This document shows, piece after piece, positions 28,541 to 64,000 of a stretch of 64,000 nucleotides of DNA. How positions within the stretch are numbered: the first letter of the stretch is position 1; each line of letters opens with the position of its first letter. A program made the translations under genes and the position numbers. Origin of the DNA: an uncultured Candidatus Actinomarina sp. (lineage in GTDB: Bacteria; Actinomycetota; Acidimicrobiia; Actinomarinales; Actinomarinaceae); contig CACAQC010000003.1 of the NCBI GenBank assembly GCA_902534495.1, forward strand, positions 6,952 to 70,951, read 5' to 3'. Under the pieces are notes generated by a model. It worked only from the letters and a program-made list of their open reading frames with translations. It had not been told where the DNA came from and made no database searches.

Positions 28541-28579
28541 ATTTACTAAGTTAATATCTTATATACCGAAAGGTTTTAC

Positions 28580-28810
28580 ATGGCAAATATTAAATCACAA
28601 AAAAAGAGAATTCGCCAAGATGCGAAAAAAAATTTTCGTAATAAATCACTTAAAAGTCAACTAAAAACGACTTTAAAATTACTGGAGAGTGGTGATGATT
28701 CCGCTGAAGTAAGAACTCAGGCATTAAAGTCACTGGATGTTGCTTATTCTAAAGGAATAATTTCTAAAAATTTCAGAGATAGAAACAAGTCTAGAATTTC
28801 AAGCCTGTAA
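28580..28810 (+). CDS. rpsT: 30S ribosomal protein S20
   Basis: MANIKSQKKRIRQDAKKN start, highly basic, 76 aa, with GAAAGG upstream. Confidence 0.92.
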   Translation: MANIKSQKKRIRQDAKKNFRNKSLKSQLKTTLKLLESGDDSAEVRTQALKSLDVAYSKGIISKNFRDRNKSRISSL

Positions 28811-59217: not shown

Positions 59218-59236
59218 TTATCTCCTATAAATTAAG

Positions 59237-59311
59237 GGTGACCGACGGGATTCGAACCCGCGACCTCCTGGACCACAACCAGGCGCTCTAACCAACTGAG
59301 CTACGATCACC
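59237..59311 (-). tRNA. tRNA-His(GTG) with genomically encoded G-1
   Basis: Hand-folded: G(-1)/GTGATCG/TA/GCTC-AGTTGGTTA-GAGC/G/CCTGG-TTGTGGT-CCAGG/AGGTC/GCGGG-TTCGAAT-CCCGT/CGGTCAC/C. G-1 pairs with C73. Confidence 0.9.
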
Positions 59312-59315
59312 ACGG

Positions 59316-59389
59316 CGCTCTCGGTAGGACTCGAACCTACAACCTACAGATTAGAAGTCTGTTGCTCTATCCATTTGAGCTACGAGAGC
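59316..59389 (-). tRNA. tRNA-Arg(TCT)
   Basis: Hand-folded: GCTCTCG/TA/GCTC-AAATGGATA-GAGC/A/ACAGA-CTTCTAA-TCTGT/AGGTT/GTAGG-TTCGAGT-CCTAC/CGAGAGC/G. Confidence 0.9.
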
Positions 59390-59397
59390 TCTGCCAG

Positions 59398-59468
59398 AGC
59401 GGGTGAAGGGAATCGAACCCTCATAGCCAGCTTGGAAGGCTGGAGCTTTGCCATTAAGCTACACCCGC
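59398..59468 (-). tRNA. tRNA-Gly(TCC)
   Basis: Hand-folded: GCGGGTG/TA/GCTT-AATGGCA-AAGC/T/CCAGC-CTTCCAA-GCTGG/CTAT/GAGGG-TTCGATT-CCCTT/CACCCGC/T. Confidence 0.9.
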
Positions 59469-59475
59469 AGGTATG

Positions 59476-59550
59476 TCGGGCTGGTGAGATTCGAACTCAC
59501 GACCTCTTGGTCCCAAACCAAGCGCTCTAGCCAAACTGAGCCACAGCCCG
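59476..59550 (-). tRNA. tRNA-Pro(TGG)
   Basis: Hand-folded: CGGGCTG/TG/GCTC-AGTTTGGCTA-GAGC/G/CTTGG-TTTGGGA-CCAAG/AGGTC/GTGAG-TTCGAAT-CTCAC/CAGCCCG/A. G37 is present. Confidence 0.9.
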
Positions 59551-59644
59551 CAACTTAATTATTTTTCTATGTTAACTGATTTTATTAAACAATAAATAGA
59601 AAAAATTTATACTTAACTATCATAATCTAAGTTATTCTTTAAAA

Positions 59645-59718
59645 GGGGTCGCTAGCTCAATTTGGCAGAGCATCGGACTCTTAATCCGCAGGTTCGGGGT
59701 TCAAGTCCCCGGCGACCC
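59645..59718 (+). tRNA. tRNA-Lys(CTT)
   Basis: Hand-folded: GGGTCGC/TA/GCTC-AATTTGGCA-GAGC/A/TCGGA-CTCTTAA-TCCGC/AGGTT/CGGGG-TTCAAGT-CCCCG/GCGACCC/A. Confidence 0.9.
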
Positions 59719-59730
59719 ACGCGACATTTT

Positions 59731-59813
59731 GGCGGATGTGGCGGAACTGGTAGACGCGCTGGATTTAGGATCCAGTGAGCTTTGCTCGTGGAGGTTCGAC
59801 TCCTCTCATCCGC
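59731..59813 (+). tRNA. tRNA-Leu(TAG), class II with a long variable arm
   Basis: GCGGATG acceptor, anticodon stem-loop CTGGA-TTTAGGA-TCCAG, variable arm TGAGCTTTGCTCGT, T-arm GGAGG-TTCGACT-CCTCT, CATCCGC/A. Confidence 0.9.
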
Positions 59814-59823
59814 ACAAGATTAA

Positions 59824-60309: not shown

Positions 60310-62248
60310 CGTCAGAATCTGAAGCTCTTGTTTGAAGCTCTGAAACAATATCAGCATTTGCTAAAGTTGTCACATCACCTAATTTTCTTTCTTCTGAAAT
60401 GTCTTTAAGTAATCTTCTCATAATTTTTCCACTTCTCGTTTTTGGCAGATCAGCAGTAATAACTATGCTTTTAGGTTTTGCAATCGGACCAATTTTGTCA
60501 CTTACATGCTGTCTCAGTTCTGCAATCAAATCTTCATTGCCTTCCTCAGTGCCAATTAAAGAAACAAATGCAGCAATTGCTTCACCGGTTATTTCATCAC
60601 TTCGACCAATAACTGCTGCCTCTGCAACAGCATTATGTGAAACTAACGCACTTTCAACTTCCGCAGTAGATATTCTATGTCCAGATATATTCATTACGTC
60701 ATCAACACGACCTAAAAGCCAAATGTAACCCTCTTCATCATATTTTGCACCATCACCGGCAAAATATAGACCTTCATGTTGAGACCAATATGTATCAATA
60801 TACCTTTTATCATCTCCATATACTGTTCGAAGCATTGATGGCCACGGAGATTTGATTGCTAAAAATCCACCTTCTCCTTTGCCCACTTCATTTCCATCAT
60901 TGTCAATAATTACAGATTCGATACCAGGTAAAGGACCACAGGCAGATCCTGGTTTAGTGCTTGTTACGCCTGGCAAAGGTGAAATCATAATTGAACCTGT
61001 TTCTGTCTGCCACCAAGTATCAACAATTGCACAATTTTCTCCACCAATATTTTCGTGGTACCACATCCATGCTTCAGGATTAATTGGCTCCCCAACAGTA
61101 CCAAGTATTCTCAATGAACTTAAATCGTGAGCTTGTGGATGCTCAACTCCCCATTTCATGAATGCTCTAATTGCCGTTGGTGCAGTATAAAAAATATTAA
61201 CTTTATATTTTTCAATTATGCTCCATAATCTTTTTTCATCGGGGGCATTTGGTGCACCTTCGTACATTACACTTGTTGCTTTATTTGCTAAAGGGCCATA
61301 AACAATATAACTATGACCTGTTACCCAACCACAATCTGCAGCACACCAATAAATATCATCCTCTTTAACATCAAATACCTCATGGTGAGTAGTTGTAACT
61401 CCAGTGAGGTAACCAGCCTGTGTATGGACGATACCCTTAGGTTTAGCTGTTGTTCCTGATGTATATAAAATGTATAACAAATCTTCAGCATTCATGACTT
61501 CAGGCTCACATTCAGAAGATTGTTTCTCTGTTATTTCGTGATACCAGTGATCCCTACCATCAGCCATATTTATTTCTTGTTCTGTTCGTCTTACAACTAT
61601 TACATTTTCAACATAGTCTGTTAAATCAAGTGAGCCATCGACATTGTTTTTAAGTGGAACTATATCCCCTCTTCTCCACGCTCCATCAGCTGTAATAACA
61701 GTCTTTGCCTTTGCGTCATTAATTCTGTCAGCGAGTGCTTCCGAAGAAAAACCTCCAAACACAACTGAATGAACTGCACCAATTCTTGCACATGCCAACA
61801 TTGAAACAACAATCTCTGGAGTCATACCTAAATAAATTGCTACCCTATCACCTTTTTGAACTCCAAGTTGTTTTAATGCATTAGATAACTTACAGACTCT
61901 TTCATGAAGATCTTGATAAGTTATTTCTTGGGTATCTCCAGGTTCACCTTCCCAATAAAAGGCTACTCTATCTGAATCAGTTTCTAGATGGCGGTCTAAA
62001 CAATTATAAGATAAATTAAGCTCTCCATCTTTAAACCATTTAAAAAAAGGAGGGTTTGAATCATCTAATATTTCTGTTGGTTTTTTATACCAAGATATTC
62101 TTTTTAAAGCTTGCTTCTCCCAAAATTCTAAGCGATTTTTATCTGCATCTTCGTGCCATGAAGATGTTGCGTTTGCGTTTTCTGTGAGTTGTTTCGAAGG
62201 AGGGAATTTTCGTTCTTCTTTAAGTAAATTTTCGATTTTTTCATTCAT
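60302..62248 (-). CDS. acs: Acetyl-CoA synthetase (AMP-forming)
   Basis: YTSGTTAKPKG (the AMP-binding motif), WWQTETG, LPKTRSGKIMRR, and 648 aa are typical of Acs. AAGGGA lies upstream of the ATG. Confidence 0.92.
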   Translation of the reverse strand: MNEKIENLLKEERKFPPSKQLTENANATSSWHEDADKNRLEFWEKQALKRISWYKKPTEILDDSNPPFFKWFKDGELNLSYNCLDRHLETDSDRVAFYWEGEPGDTQEITYQDLHERVCKLSNALKQLGVQKGDRVAIYLGMTPEIVVSMLACARIGAVHSVVFGGFSSEALADRINDAKAKTVITADGAWRRGDIVPLKNNVDGSLDLTDYVENVIVVRRTEQEINMADGRDHWYHEITEKQSSECEPEVMNAEDLLYILYTSGTTAKPKGIVHTQAGYLTGVTTTHHEVFDVKEDDIYWCAADCGWVTGHSYIVYGPLANKATSVMYEGAPNAPDEKRLWSIIEKYKVNIFYTAPTAIRAFMKWGVEHPQAHDLSSLRILGTVGEPINPEAWMWYHENIGGENCAIVDTWWQTETGSIMISPLPGVTSTKPGSACGPLPGIESVIIDNDGNEVGKGEGGFLAIKSPWPSMLRTVYGDDKRYIDTYWSQHEGLYFAGDGAKYDEEGYIWLLGRVDDVMNISGHRISTAEVESALVSHNAVAEAAVIGRSDEITGEAIAAFVSLIGTEEGNEDLIAELRQHVSDKIGPIAKPKSIVITADLPKTRSGKIMRRLLKDISEERKLGDVTTLANADIVSELQTRASDSDDE

Positions 62249-62298
62249 ATTTATATTCCCTTAAAATAGTATATATATCAAAGAAGTGAAAAATCTAC

Positions 62299-63855
62299 TT
62301 AAGAAGTCATAAAATAGTAATTAAAACCATCACACAAAGCATTCCATGAAGCATTGATTATGTTTTCATGAACTCCGATAGTACTCCATTTCTTGTTGGA
62401 ATCTGTAAATTCAATCAAGACTCTTGTTTTAGCTTCAGTTCCATCTGAAGAATCTATAATTCTAACTTTGTAATCAATAAGCTTAATTTCATTTACTCTT
62501 GAATAATCATTTTCTAAAGCAGATTTTAAAGCTTTGCTCAAAGCATCAACTGGGCCTACTCCTTCTCCAGTTTTAACGTATCTATTTTCATCTACAATAA
62601 TTTTACAAACTGCTTCTGAAACAACATTTTCAGAATTTCGTCTTTCAGAGAATACCCTAAAGCTTTCAAATTTAAAAAAGTTGGGTTCTATATTCTTGAG
62701 TTTGTTCATCAATATAAATAGTGATCCATCAGCTGCTTCAAATTGATACCCTATATGTTCAAGATTTTGCACTTCTTCAATTAATTTTTTGGCATCATCA
62801 TTATTAAATTCCAAACCAAATTCCTCTGCTTTTGTTAGAACACTAGCTCTACCAGCTAACTCAGATACTGTTGTCCTTGTAAAATTCCCTACTGCGGCTG
62901 AATCAATGTGTTCATAAAGTGAGCTATCCTTTGCCATTCCAGATGCATGTAATCCAGCTTTATGTGTAAAAGCTGAGGAACCTACATAAGGATGACGTGA
63001 ATCGATCGCTACATTTACCAACTCAGCAATATGATTTGCTGTTTGAGTTAATCGGCCTAATGAGCGTTCAGAAATTGTTTGATAGCCTTTTTTTAATGTT
63101 AAGTTAGGAATTAAAGTGCATAAATCAGCATTACCAGTTCTCTCACCATATCCATTAATGGTTCCCTGTACATGATTTACACCTAAATCTACTGCAACCA
63201 TTGAGTTTGCTACTGCACAACCATTATCATTTTGAAAATGTACGCCAAAGTTGGCTTTTGGATATTTTGAAATTATCTCTGAAATTATCTCATGAACTTC
63301 ACTTGGAAGTGTTCCACCGTTTGTGTCACAAAATACAAAGCATTCAACTTTTGTAGAAATTACAGCATCTAATATTTTTAAACTTGTTTCTGGATCTTCT
63401 TTGTATCCATCAAAAAAATGTTCGGCATCAAAAAATACTTTCTTTTTATTTTGTACTAAGAAGTTAATAGTATCAACTGCCATCTCTATTGCCTCATCTA
63501 CAGTGGCTTGTATGGCTTTTGTAATATGAAGTTTGGAAGACTTTCCTACTATGCATACATATTCTGTTTCTGCATCAACCAATGCTTGCACTTGTGGATC
63601 TTTATCAACACTTAAGGTAAGTTTTCTTGTTGATCCAAAGCTAACCAATTTTGCATTATCAAGATTGAGTTCTAATTTTGCTTTTTTGAAAAATTCTTCT
63701 TCTTTTGGAGAAGCACCAGGCCAACCACCTTCAATAAAGGATACTCCGAGATTATCTAGTAATTTTGCAATTTCTAATTTATCTTTTACAGAAGGAGAAA
63801 TCCCTTCTTGCTGAAAGCCATCTCTTAAAGTTGTATCAAATATATCAATTTTCAT
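62299..63855 (-). CDS. cimA: (R)-citramalate synthase (LeuA/CimA family, long form with regulatory domain)
   Basis: IFDTTLRDGFQQEGISPSVKDKLEIAKLLDNLGVSFIEGGWPGASPKEEEFF matches the CimA-type N-terminus (GGWPGA-PK). 518 aa. The upstream Ile-codon leader supports an isoleucine-pathway role over leuA. Confidence 0.75.
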   Translation of the reverse strand: MKIDIFDTTLRDGFQQEGISPSVKDKLEIAKLLDNLGVSFIEGGWPGASPKEEEFFKKAKLELNLDNAKLVSFGSTRKLTLSVDKDPQVQALVDAETEYVCIVGKSSKLHITKAIQATVDEAIEMAVDTINFLVQNKKKVFFDAEHFFDGYKEDPETSLKILDAVISTKVECFVFCDTNGGTLPSEVHEIISEIISKYPKANFGVHFQNDNGCAVANSMVAVDLGVNHVQGTINGYGERTGNADLCTLIPNLTLKKGYQTISERSLGRLTQTANHIAELVNVAIDSRHPYVGSSAFTHKAGLHASGMAKDSSLYEHIDSAAVGNFTRTTVSELAGRASVLTKAEEFGLEFNNDDAKKLIEEVQNLEHIGYQFEAADGSLFILMNKLKNIEPNFFKFESFRVFSERRNSENVVSEAVCKIIVDENRYVKTGEGVGPVDALSKALKSALENDYSRVNEIKLIDYKVRIIDSSDGTEAKTRVLIEFTDSNKKWSTIGVHENIINASWNALCDGFNYYFMTS

Positions 63856-63860
63856 AGTCT

Positions 63861-63886
63861 AAAAAAAAACCCTTGCCATGCAAGGG
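63861..63886 (-). terminator. Intrinsic terminator-like hairpin plus T9, ending 5 nt upstream of the cimA ATG (candidate attenuator terminator)
   Basis: The minus strand reads CCCTTGC-ATG-GCAAGGG-TTTTTTTTT-AGACT-ATG. That is a perfect 7-bp stem (5 GC pairs), a 3-nt loop, and nine T residues. Confidence 0.7.
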
Positions 63887-63909
63887 TAACAACGTTGAAA
63901 ACGCTGCTC

Positions 63910-63936
63910 CTAAATAATAATTATAATTTTTTTCAT
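63910..63936 (-). CDS. Candidate leader peptide MKKIIIII (five consecutive Ile codons)
   Basis: The minus strand reads ATG AAA AAA ATT ATA ATT ATT ATT TAG. Its stop lies 23 nt upstream of the terminator stem. It is too short to appear in the ORF track. Confidence 0.55.
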   Translation of the reverse strand: MKKIIIII

Positions 63937-63943
63937 TGAAACA

Positions 63944-63971
63944 ATTTTACTTCTTTTTGGCAGATTGTCTA
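63944..63971 (-). promoter_or_regulatory. Putative promoter of the cimA leader (TAGACA-N16-TAAAAT); it would place the TSS at or next to the leader ATG
   Basis: The minus strand reads TAGACA (63971-63966), a 16-nt spacer, TAAAAT (63949-63944), then 7 nt to the ATG. Such hexamers are common in AT-rich DNA, so this is weak on its own. Confidence 0.3.
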
Positions 63972-64000
63972 ACAAAATAAATTATTAGACCAAAAATAGA

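Follow-up and report, generated by a model that had tools for sequence, protein, structure and literature searches.

The isoleucine-codon leader and terminator upstream of cimA

In the 64,000-nucleotide (nt) stretch of Candidatus Actinomarina contig CACAQC010000003.1 that was analyzed here in full and is called the window below, the citramalate synthase gene cimA is preceded on the minus strand by a compact element of 76 nt, in which a short open reading frame (ORF) made up largely of isoleucine codons is followed by two adjoining hairpins. Judged from its conservation and from the codons carried by its homologs, the element is very likely an isoleucine-sensing leader-peptide attenuator. The minus strand was read over 63600–64000. 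A −35 box TAGACA (63966–63971) and a −10 box TAAAAT (63944–63949), separated by a 16-nt spacer (N16), form the candidate promoter. Seven nucleotides after TAAAAT lies the leader ORF ATG AAA AAA ATT ATA ATT ATT ATT TAG (63910–63936), which encodes MKKIIIII and whose five consecutive isoleucine codons (ATT ATA ATT ATT ATT, 63913–63927) are the proposed sensing codons. The first hairpin, H1 (63888–63908; AGCAGCGTT-TTC-AACGTTGTT as DNA, AGCAGCGUU-UUC-AACGUUGUU as RNA), has 9 base pairs (bp) including G-U pairs and begins 1 nt past the leader stop codon. It is adjoined, with a spacer of 0 nt, by a terminator hairpin with an 8-bp stem (63869–63887; ACCCTTGC-ATG-GCAAGGGT as DNA, ACCCUUGC-AUG-GCAAGGGU as RNA). 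A run of nine T (T9, 63861–63869), the U-tract of the terminator, and the spacer AGACT (63856–63860) lead to the cimA start codon, the ATG at 63855. The cimA gene itself (62299–63855, minus strand), the putative target of regulation, encodes a protein of 518 amino acids that scored 613 bits against the TIGR00977 citramalate synthase equivalog (cut-off of 450).

Folding of the element with RNAfold gave two neighboring hairpins, with a z-score of −2.7 against shuffled sequences and a computed stability of −11.9 kcal/mol for the terminator. No other hairpin followed by a T tract was found in the 64-kb window when both strands were searched for at least five pairs, at least three of them G-C, and at least six T; looser terminator-like matches elsewhere in the window stayed at the shuffle level (19 found, 19.7 expected). 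TAGACA-N16-TAAAAT is the best promoter-like match within 62000–64000, yet such matches occur at shuffle frequency. Because the −10 box lies 6–7 nt upstream, the transcript should begin at the A of the leader ATG or 1 nt before it. Since no promoter would fit between the terminator and the start codon of cimA, transcription of the gene must traverse the terminator.

The promoter boxes, the MKKIIIII ORF, both hairpins, the T9 tract and AGACT were all found where a preliminary description of the locus, made from the sequence alone, had placed them. Its account of the surroundings was less accurate. The intergenic gap, given there as more than 145 nt, is 91 nt, since the metagenomic contig L001, which has the same sequence, extends an upstream ORF of 227 amino acids to a TAA stop codon at 63949–63947; nor is this the longest non-coding stretch in the window, where larger ORF-free gaps of 127, 258 and 606 nt exist. 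The run of isoleucine codons had been called unlikely by chance at ~1e-5 per position, a figure that equals about one per window: a first-order Markov (Markov-1) model expects 0.53 runs of at least five isoleucine codons, and Markov-1 simulation of the 30%-GC window gave 0.15 expected mini-ORFs of the leader type. The single sequence is, on its own, weakly non-random. The missing Shine–Dalgarno (SD) sequence before cimA, which had been singled out, is unremarkable, as an SD-like motif precedes only ~19 of 58 genes in the window. What lifts the observation above chance is its conservation in 49 of 49 related genomes, together with the fact that it contains the sole strong hairpin–T tract in 64 kb.

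Conservation and codon identity across lineages

A CimA protein scan restricted to one genome per species returned 49 loci with CimA 76–99% identical, all from Candidatus Actinomarina, the OCS155 cluster or unclassified Actinomycetota metagenome-assembled genomes. Forty-eight of these loci include the cimA start; their positions −156 to +12 were aligned with the window to give 49 sequences. Promoter, ORF, isoleucine run, H1, terminator and exactly nine T are preserved in 49/49, while there is free variation in the hairpin loops, between the two promoter boxes, at surrounding intergenic positions and in the coding sequence upstream. In the −35 box, AGACA is invariant and the whole TAGACA is present in every checked locus but L030; a TAnnnT −10 box stands 6–7 nt before the ATG in all of them. 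The leader ORF has 8–9 codons, at least four of them for isoleucine, in every genome (MKKIIIII, MQKIIIIV, MMNIIIIN, MINIIIIN, MINFIIII, MINFIIIT, MINFMIII, MINIKIIF, MKKIIIIV, MMNIIIII and MKIIGIIIM), and its core ATAATTATT is nearly invariant. The stop codon keeps a fixed position, with TAG, TAA and TGA interchangeable. The distance from the start of the leader ORF to the terminator is 47–53 nt in every Actinomarina genome, and that from the leader stop to the terminator stem is about 22–24 nt, with H1 in between. The sole change in ORF length is an insertion of 3 nt in L030 that preserves the frame; in L025, the first ATG is gone and the following in-frame ATG is still present. Persistence of the ORF and its isoleucine run upstream of orthologous cimA genes had been named beforehand as the check on which the proposed isoleucine attenuator could fail. 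The check favored the attenuator, as ORF, frame and isoleucine run are kept in 49/49 Actinomarina genomes and in the high-GC relatives described below.

The L026/L031/L047 clade has a different upstream gene, which ends 13 nt before TAGACA. TAGACA is retained there, which marks it as an element of the promoter rather than a product of coding constraint. At the position of AGACT, the spacer between U-tract and start codon is 4–6 nt in most Actinomarina clades, including that of the window, which has no SD. It is 11–12 nt with an SD-like GGAAGAAGA in one clade (L024–L026, L028, L029, L031–L040, L043, L047 and L050). L026, L031 and L047, which are part of this GGAAGAAGA clade, are also the genomes without the 227-amino acid upstream gene.

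RNAalifold predicted H1 and the terminator, and no other structure, from the full alignment. Its 17 pairs are formed in 95.3% of alignment cells compared to 35–54% with slid partners; for the terminator alone, the value is 98.9%, and compensatory changes from U-A to A-U were found at two H1 stem pairs. Within Actinomarina, neither H1 nor the terminator varies in its stem sequence, a constancy that might be expected if the hairpins were bound by a regulatory protein or a small RNA and the short ORF were untranslated or irrelevant. We regard that explanation as very improbable. The invariant H1 pentamers are spaced 6 to 8 nt apart with covarying inner pairs, unlike a site for a sequence-specific binder, and the H1 sequence is wholly different among lineages (CAACG/CGUUG, GCGCAYACG, GCGCGCGC and CGCGUCA), the hairpin being kept; the explanation also leaves unaccounted for an in-frame ORF and the swap from isoleucine to leucine codons that follows the enzyme (see below). 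H1 as a DNA operator or protein site was likewise rejected, given the varying half-site spacing, the covarying inner pairs and the unrelated sequences of other lineages.

Beyond the genus, a CimA protein search gave three tiers of identity, namely Actinomarina at 72–97%, a few matches at 65–67% and a large group at 53–56%, some members of which are labeled Acidimicrobiia or Actinobacteria bacterium. Four high-GC loci found by CimA homology alone (L054–L057; CimA 53–56% identical, all four proteins being TIGR00977 members with 663–685 bits) carry the same design. Their leaders read MYAPAAIIIIV in L054, MFIPDNTIIIE in L055, MIKTISIIITH in L056 (from a GTG start codon) and MFQPTTIIIID in L057. 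The promoter, TTGAC(G/A)-N17-nATACT, lies 6–9 nt before the start codon, and the last base or bases of the stop codon pair into a GC-rich H1 (GCGCAYACG.../...CGTRTGCGC). After a 2-nt spacer follow the terminator, (G/A)ACCCUUCGC-loop-GCGAAGGGUU, a T tract, an SD and cimA. The terminator arms, CCCUU(C)GC and GC(G)AAGGG, are nearly the same in the 30%-GC Actinomarina and in L054–L057, which is unusual for a terminator stem. Neither leader nor terminator was found in the regions inspected at L051 (1380–1520), L052 (100–290) and L053 (1–90), with CimA 65–73% identical, or at the soil sequence L058 (1100–1220; 53%); in L052 and L053, cimA abuts or overlaps the stop codon of the upstream gene. The attenuator is patchily distributed, having been lost or never gained in these lineages.

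Metagenome contigs were scanned with the GC-rich terminator sequence alone, which gave at least 136 matches in at least 120 stretches. Among the matches listed, 19 loci have the full module (L098 and L111 are identical). Fourteen of them have isoleucine leaders, including MATLTTIIIS, MKHVTTAIIID, MTSLGIIIP, MQQSTTAIIID, MFMPAATIIIV, MAPTNTIIIVD, MNSAATVIIID, MSTTTTILIA, MFTSATVIIIE, MNSVAAIIID, MFQPTSTVIIE, MAIVSIIIN and MIRTGIKIR, and all 14 stand before cimA-type genes (TIGR00977, 634–676 bits for the two tested). The remaining five have leucine leaders (MRNLLLT three times, MNGSLLLL and MSGNLLLL; L071, L103, L133, L138 and L151) and precede leuA-type genes (TIGR00973, 720–722 bits for the two tested; cut-off of 598.7). 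These leucine modules share their terminator sequence with the cimA versions. Codon and enzyme match in 18/18 cases for isoleucine and cimA and in 5/5 for leucine and leuA when the metagenome matches listed are taken together with the four high-GC loci. That the codon tracks two paralogous enzymes is the strongest argument that the ORF would be translated and would sense the cognate amino acid, and the pattern suggests that attenuator and synthase diversified together.

These comparisons also bear on the possibility that no amino acid is sensed at all, the terminator ending an upstream transcript or insulating cimA and the isoleucine run being a −10-like sequence or a chance occurrence. In the single sequence, neither the isoleucine run nor the promoter match goes much beyond what chance would give, and (ATT)n contains TAnnnT hexamers, as this possibility would have it. 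Even so, we give it next to no credence, as the comparative data already contradict it. The isoleucine runs occur in high-GC genomes and are therefore not an effect of base composition; CTG and CTT leucine codons, which are unlike a −10 box, replace isoleucine exactly where the gene is leuA; the element is retained in the clade with a different upstream gene; and cimA has no promoter room after the terminator. The isoleucine run as a −10 promoter box was rejected given the leucine-codon homologs and the conserved start, frame and stop, and a terminator serving the upstream gene only was rejected given that the element persists beside another gene and that cimA lacks room for a promoter of its own.

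Geometry of the element and the proposed ribosome switch

The spacing of the parts was compared across 71 elements. The codon run starts 4–5 codons ahead of the stop codon in 66/71, and the end of the stop codon lies −3 to +2 nt from the base of H1 in 71/71. Between H1 and the terminator there are 0 nt in 51 elements, 1–2 nt in 15 and 3–4 nt in five. In most leaders, one or two non-regulatory codons separate the run from the stop codon (IIID, IIIE, IIIV, LLLT and IIIIN, each followed by the stop). A hairpin occupies the H1 position in all 56 distinct elements, with unrelated sequences. The distance from the −10 box to the start codon, 6–7 nt in AT-rich and 6–10 nt in GC-rich members, leaves no space for an SD, a spacing that fits a predicted leaderless leader peptide. 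H1 extends 1–5 nt into the 5′ arm of the terminator in 40/49 Actinomarina genomes, before the terminator 3′ arm exists, and this extension is worth −0.8 to −4.2 kcal/mol. The pairs involved are lineage specific (GG:CC over a bulged A, GU:AC, UAAGG:CCUUG, U:A and G:U) and are the bottom pairs of the terminator. At the H1–terminator boundary stands an A in AT-rich forms and GA or AA in GC-rich forms. According to a recent preprint (bioRxiv 10.64898/2026.07.06.736697), the efficiency of termination depends strongly on one or two A or G nucleotides at this place, just ahead of the stem, and the need of mycobacterial RNA polymerase for a U-tract at intrinsic terminators is reported in PMC3993855.

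Of the features by which attenuators are recognized, a conserved short ORF, a run of codons for the amino acid of the pathway and an intrinsic terminator between leader and gene are all present. Taken as a whole, the element is probably best explained as a transcription attenuator that is mediated by the ribosome and responds to isoleucine, with a leader peptide predicted to be leaderless and with H1 as the antiterminator. The logic assigned to H1 is the more tentative part of this explanation, and considered by itself we hold it to be quite possible but short of probable.

The proposed sequence of events is as follows. From the promoter, with its boxes in the final codons of the preceding gene, transcription would start at the leader ATG or 1 nt before it, and the polymerase would pass H1 and then meet a strong terminator 5 nt before the cimA start codon. 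The footprint of a ribosome reaches ~12 nt 3′ of the first A-site nucleotide, as known from footprint and toeprint data. Given this footprint length and the conserved geometry, the ribosome could only toggle H1. When isoleucine is plentiful, the ribosome would reach the stop codon at the base of H1 and cover or unwind the entire H1 5′ arm; with H1 melted, the terminator would close fully and transcription would halt. When charged isoleucine-tRNA is scarce, the ribosome would stall at the first isoleucine codons; its leading side would then reach only to the stop codon, which would leave H1 folded. A folded H1, 0–2 nt from the terminator, would then keep the bottom pairs of the terminator open inside RNA polymerase and so allow read-through into cimA. 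H1 would thus be the antiterminator and the terminating ribosome the anti-antiterminator, with no ‘region 1’ and no long alternative pairing. With the non-regulatory codons before the stop, even a ribosome waiting at the final codon of the run would open little of H1. This hairpin would probably also cause the polymerase to pause, giving the leaderless ribosome time to draw level.

The direction of the switch is set by the gene, since a biosynthetic gene needs a folded H1 to mean read-through and a melted H1 to mean termination; the opposite assignment fails because a freed H1 3′ arm would give the terminator no competitor. A steric block is proposed because abutment at 0–2 nt is the sole shared feature where H1 and terminator do not overlap. 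A stable H1 just 5′ of the terminator would, in this proposal, prevent closure of the stem bottom in the polymerase exit channel. H1 as antiterminator predicts read-through on untranslated RNA and constitutive termination if H1 is destroyed or displaced.

A competing antiterminator pairing was sought by folding with 0, 22, 25, 28, 31, 34 or 37 nt masked at the 5′ end, with the terminator 3′ arm absent and with the terminator forbidden. For the window element, no competing fold appeared under any 5′ mask, and the pair probabilities of the terminator were 0.79–1.0. In GC-rich forms, forbidding the terminator 3′ arm produced no new fold. The only competitor in AT-rich and GC-rich members alike is the weak extension of H1 by 2–5 bp. 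The H1 3′ arm and the terminator 5′ arm are neighbors and not complementary to one another. The mutually exclusive antiterminator structure by which leader-peptide attenuators are also recognized is therefore absent from the folds of AT-rich and GC-rich members. The preliminary description had remarked that no convincing antiterminator pairing could be found by eye, and the masked and constrained folds bear this out, showing no classical one; the mutually exclusive structures that it proposed to find by folding did not appear beyond the weak H1 extension. Without a classical antiterminator, the mechanism cannot be of the textbook trp/ilv type. Two further features of the leader RNA were set aside as inconstant: pairing of the leader A7 run with the U-tract, seen in the minimum-free-energy fold of the window element, is not conserved (other clades have ATGATTAAT), and TAGGAG after the leader stop, considered as an SD or pause site, varies among GGAG, AGGA, AGAA, GUAG, GUGA and AUAA.

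A classical attenuator might still operate through a pairing that the folds missed, such as a pseudoknot, a non-canonical pairing or one with sequence outside the analyzed region. Conservation of the terminator arms from 30%-GC to high-GC genomes hints at an extra constraint, and the H1 5′ arm (GCAACG) is similar to the terminator 3′ arm (GCAAGG). This seems to us quite improbable, as no competitor arose when AT-rich and GC-rich members were folded under masks and constraints, and RNAalifold gave only the two hairpins. The cross-pairings seen by eye, of the H1 5′ arm with the terminator 5′ arm and of the two 3′ arms, amount to 3–4 bp with mismatches, and neither the H1 loops nor the 5′ part of the leader is conserved.

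The absence of an alternative pairing could also mean that isoleucine is sensed and that the stalled ribosome is itself the antiterminator. Its bulk, or its contact with RNA polymerase or NusG, would bar the terminator hairpin from the exit channel, and H1 would do no more than cause pausing and act as a rigid spacer. This variant draws support from the same conserved geometry, with the ribosome a few nucleotides from the base of H1 and H1 0–2 nt from the terminator, and it would explain why high-GC forms need no overlap of H1 and terminator. It is nevertheless unlikely. A folded H1 leaves a helix of 9–12 bp between ribosome and polymerase, the variant does not explain why H1 reaches into the terminator arm in ways that differ by lineage, and we know of no case in which a ribosome ~50 nt upstream blocks an intrinsic terminator.

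Several observations also count against the explanation favored here. In 9/49 Actinomarina genomes, and in every high-GC form that was examined, not one nucleotide is common to H1 and the terminator. The computed energy of H1 with the full terminator is −20.4 kcal/mol compared to −15.4 kcal/mol for extended H1 with a truncated terminator, and in equilibrium folding the terminator has a probability of about 1 at every position of the masking ribosome. No direct precedent was found for a steric block by hairpin abutment. The last isoleucine codons of MKKIIIII lie near H1, and a ribosome stalled there would partly open it. Read-through is predicted whenever the leader is untranslated, which makes the element less specific than classical attenuators. 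Finally, mutation of the candidate regulatory codons of the Streptomyces ilvB leader had no effect, according to work cited in PMC1262725, so actinobacterial leader-like ORFs are not always functional.

More broadly, the elements might represent a modular, minimal class of attenuator, in which an abutting hairpin blocks terminator closure with little or no shared sequence, a ribosome reaching the stop codon in the base of that hairpin is the sole switch, and isoleucine and leucine codons are swapped with CimA and LeuA, from 30%-GC marine to high-GC Actinomycetota. We put this forward as a possibility about which we remain rather doubtful.

Relation to known attenuators and genome context

No relevant Rfam 15 family, T-box and leader families included, matched this region of the window at E ≤ 10, and in the whole window only tRNAs reach the gathering score. 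Nothing relevant was found in 12 related loci either: L056 gave a lone sub-threshold match to anti-hemB (E = 0.00035), its 32 bits falling below the gathering score of 49.5, and eight others gave no match of any kind. Full-text literature searches for a leader peptide or attenuator tied to cimA or citramalate synthase found nothing relevant. Regulation of this kind is known; new are its architecture, its target gene and the lineages that have it. The candidate attenuator family, recognized by comparing sequences from Actinomarina, high-GC Actinomycetota and metagenomic contigs, is undescribed.

The enterobacterial leaders trpL, hisL, leuL, thrL, pheL and ilvL/ivbL resemble it in having an ORF with codons for the end product, a terminator before a biosynthetic gene and a ribosome whose position decides the outcome. 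Unlike them, the element has no 1:2, 2:3 and 3:4 pairings, its hairpins abut rather than overlap extensively, its ORF of 7–11 codons, predicted to be leaderless, stops short of the first hairpin, and its target is cimA.

Closer to it is the ilvBNC leader of C. glutamicum (the ilvB-II motif; PMC11857589, PMC10272879), which is also actinobacterial, controls branched-chain synthesis and has neighboring hairpins. There, the transcript starts one nucleotide before the leader start codon, much as predicted for the cimA leader, and the adjoining antiterminator and terminator hairpins share, and compete for, only a boundary trinucleotide at the terminator base (PMC11857589). In the ilvBNC leader, however, the upstream ORF spans the first hairpin, the codons are a mixture for isoleucine, leucine and valine, and there is a third, anti-antiterminator hairpin. 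Its alternative pairing is defined and supported by mutation: the P1 loop region joins with the terminator's lower right shoulder to form the antiterminator. In the cimA element, the ORF stops at the base of H1, the codons are purely isoleucine or leucine and many members have no overlap. The ilvB-II pairing is absent from the alignment and from the distinct elements, where H1 loops are non-conserved and not complementary to the terminator.

Seliverstov et al. (2005; PMC1262725) described candidate leader peptides and terminators of actinobacterial ilvB ‘with some components of attenuators missing’, as well as the leuA element LEU, which has an upstream ORF with a leucine run. They differ in that the ilvB ORFs overlap the terminator hairpin and LEU is an SD-sequestering pseudoknot without a terminator, and neither system is on cimA or from Acidimicrobiia. 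Isoleucine T-box riboswitches of ileS and ilv operons likewise sense the charging of isoleucine-tRNA and control read-through of a terminator, but they are ~200 nt or more, bind tRNA directly and have no ORF, in contrast to 76 nt with an ORF here. The coupling attenuators of E. coli pyrBI and pyrE share a terminator without an antiterminator hairpin and a decisive ribosome position. In these, the ORF reaches or enters the terminator, and termination is prevented by a ribosome that follows closely, whereas the cimA leader ORF ends about 22–24 nt before the terminator, and the pyrBI/pyrE logic would have the wrong sign for an isoleucine gene.

Candidatus Actinomarina are among the smallest free-living marine bacteria, with genomes of about 1 Mb. 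The window has a GC content of 29.9% and is very compact, most gene pairs overlapping or lying less than 10 nt apart, and almost no recognizable regulatory signals were found in it. A search for sister attenuators in the window gave none, and no leuA or other gene for a DTTLRDG-type synthase is present there. A conserved sensor before cimA would show which control a streamlined cell retains and would mark the citramalate route as the regulated entry to isoleucine synthesis in Actinomarina. The family appears to offer a natural swap of specificity, isoleucine for CimA and leucine for LeuA, without textbook alternative hairpins. At 76 nt, the element is suited to direct study of how an upstream hairpin and a terminating ribosome act on an intrinsic terminator, and it could serve as a compact, re-codable amino acid sensor.

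Upstream of the element, the 3′ end of the 227-amino acid ORF (63947–64000, minus strand) is cut by the window edge, its extension being taken from L001 and L002, and its C-terminus reads ...FGLIIYFVRQSAKKK before the stop codon. The promoter boxes of the cimA leader lie within the last codons of this ORF. The complete ORF (L001, 1109–1792) encodes an N-terminal hydrophobic segment followed by Cys, which is lipoprotein-like, and a C-terminal hydrophobic stretch with a basic tail; no Pfam match is on record for it. Among the ORF-free gaps of the window, that of 258 nt (28541–28798, plus strand) holds an apparent small ORF, MANIKSQKKRIRQDAKKNFRNK..., that resembles ribosomal protein S20 by eye. 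The gaps of 127 and 606 nt hold tRNA genes, six of them in the latter (59236–59815), for His, Arg, Gly and Pro on the minus strand and for Lys and Leu on the plus strand.

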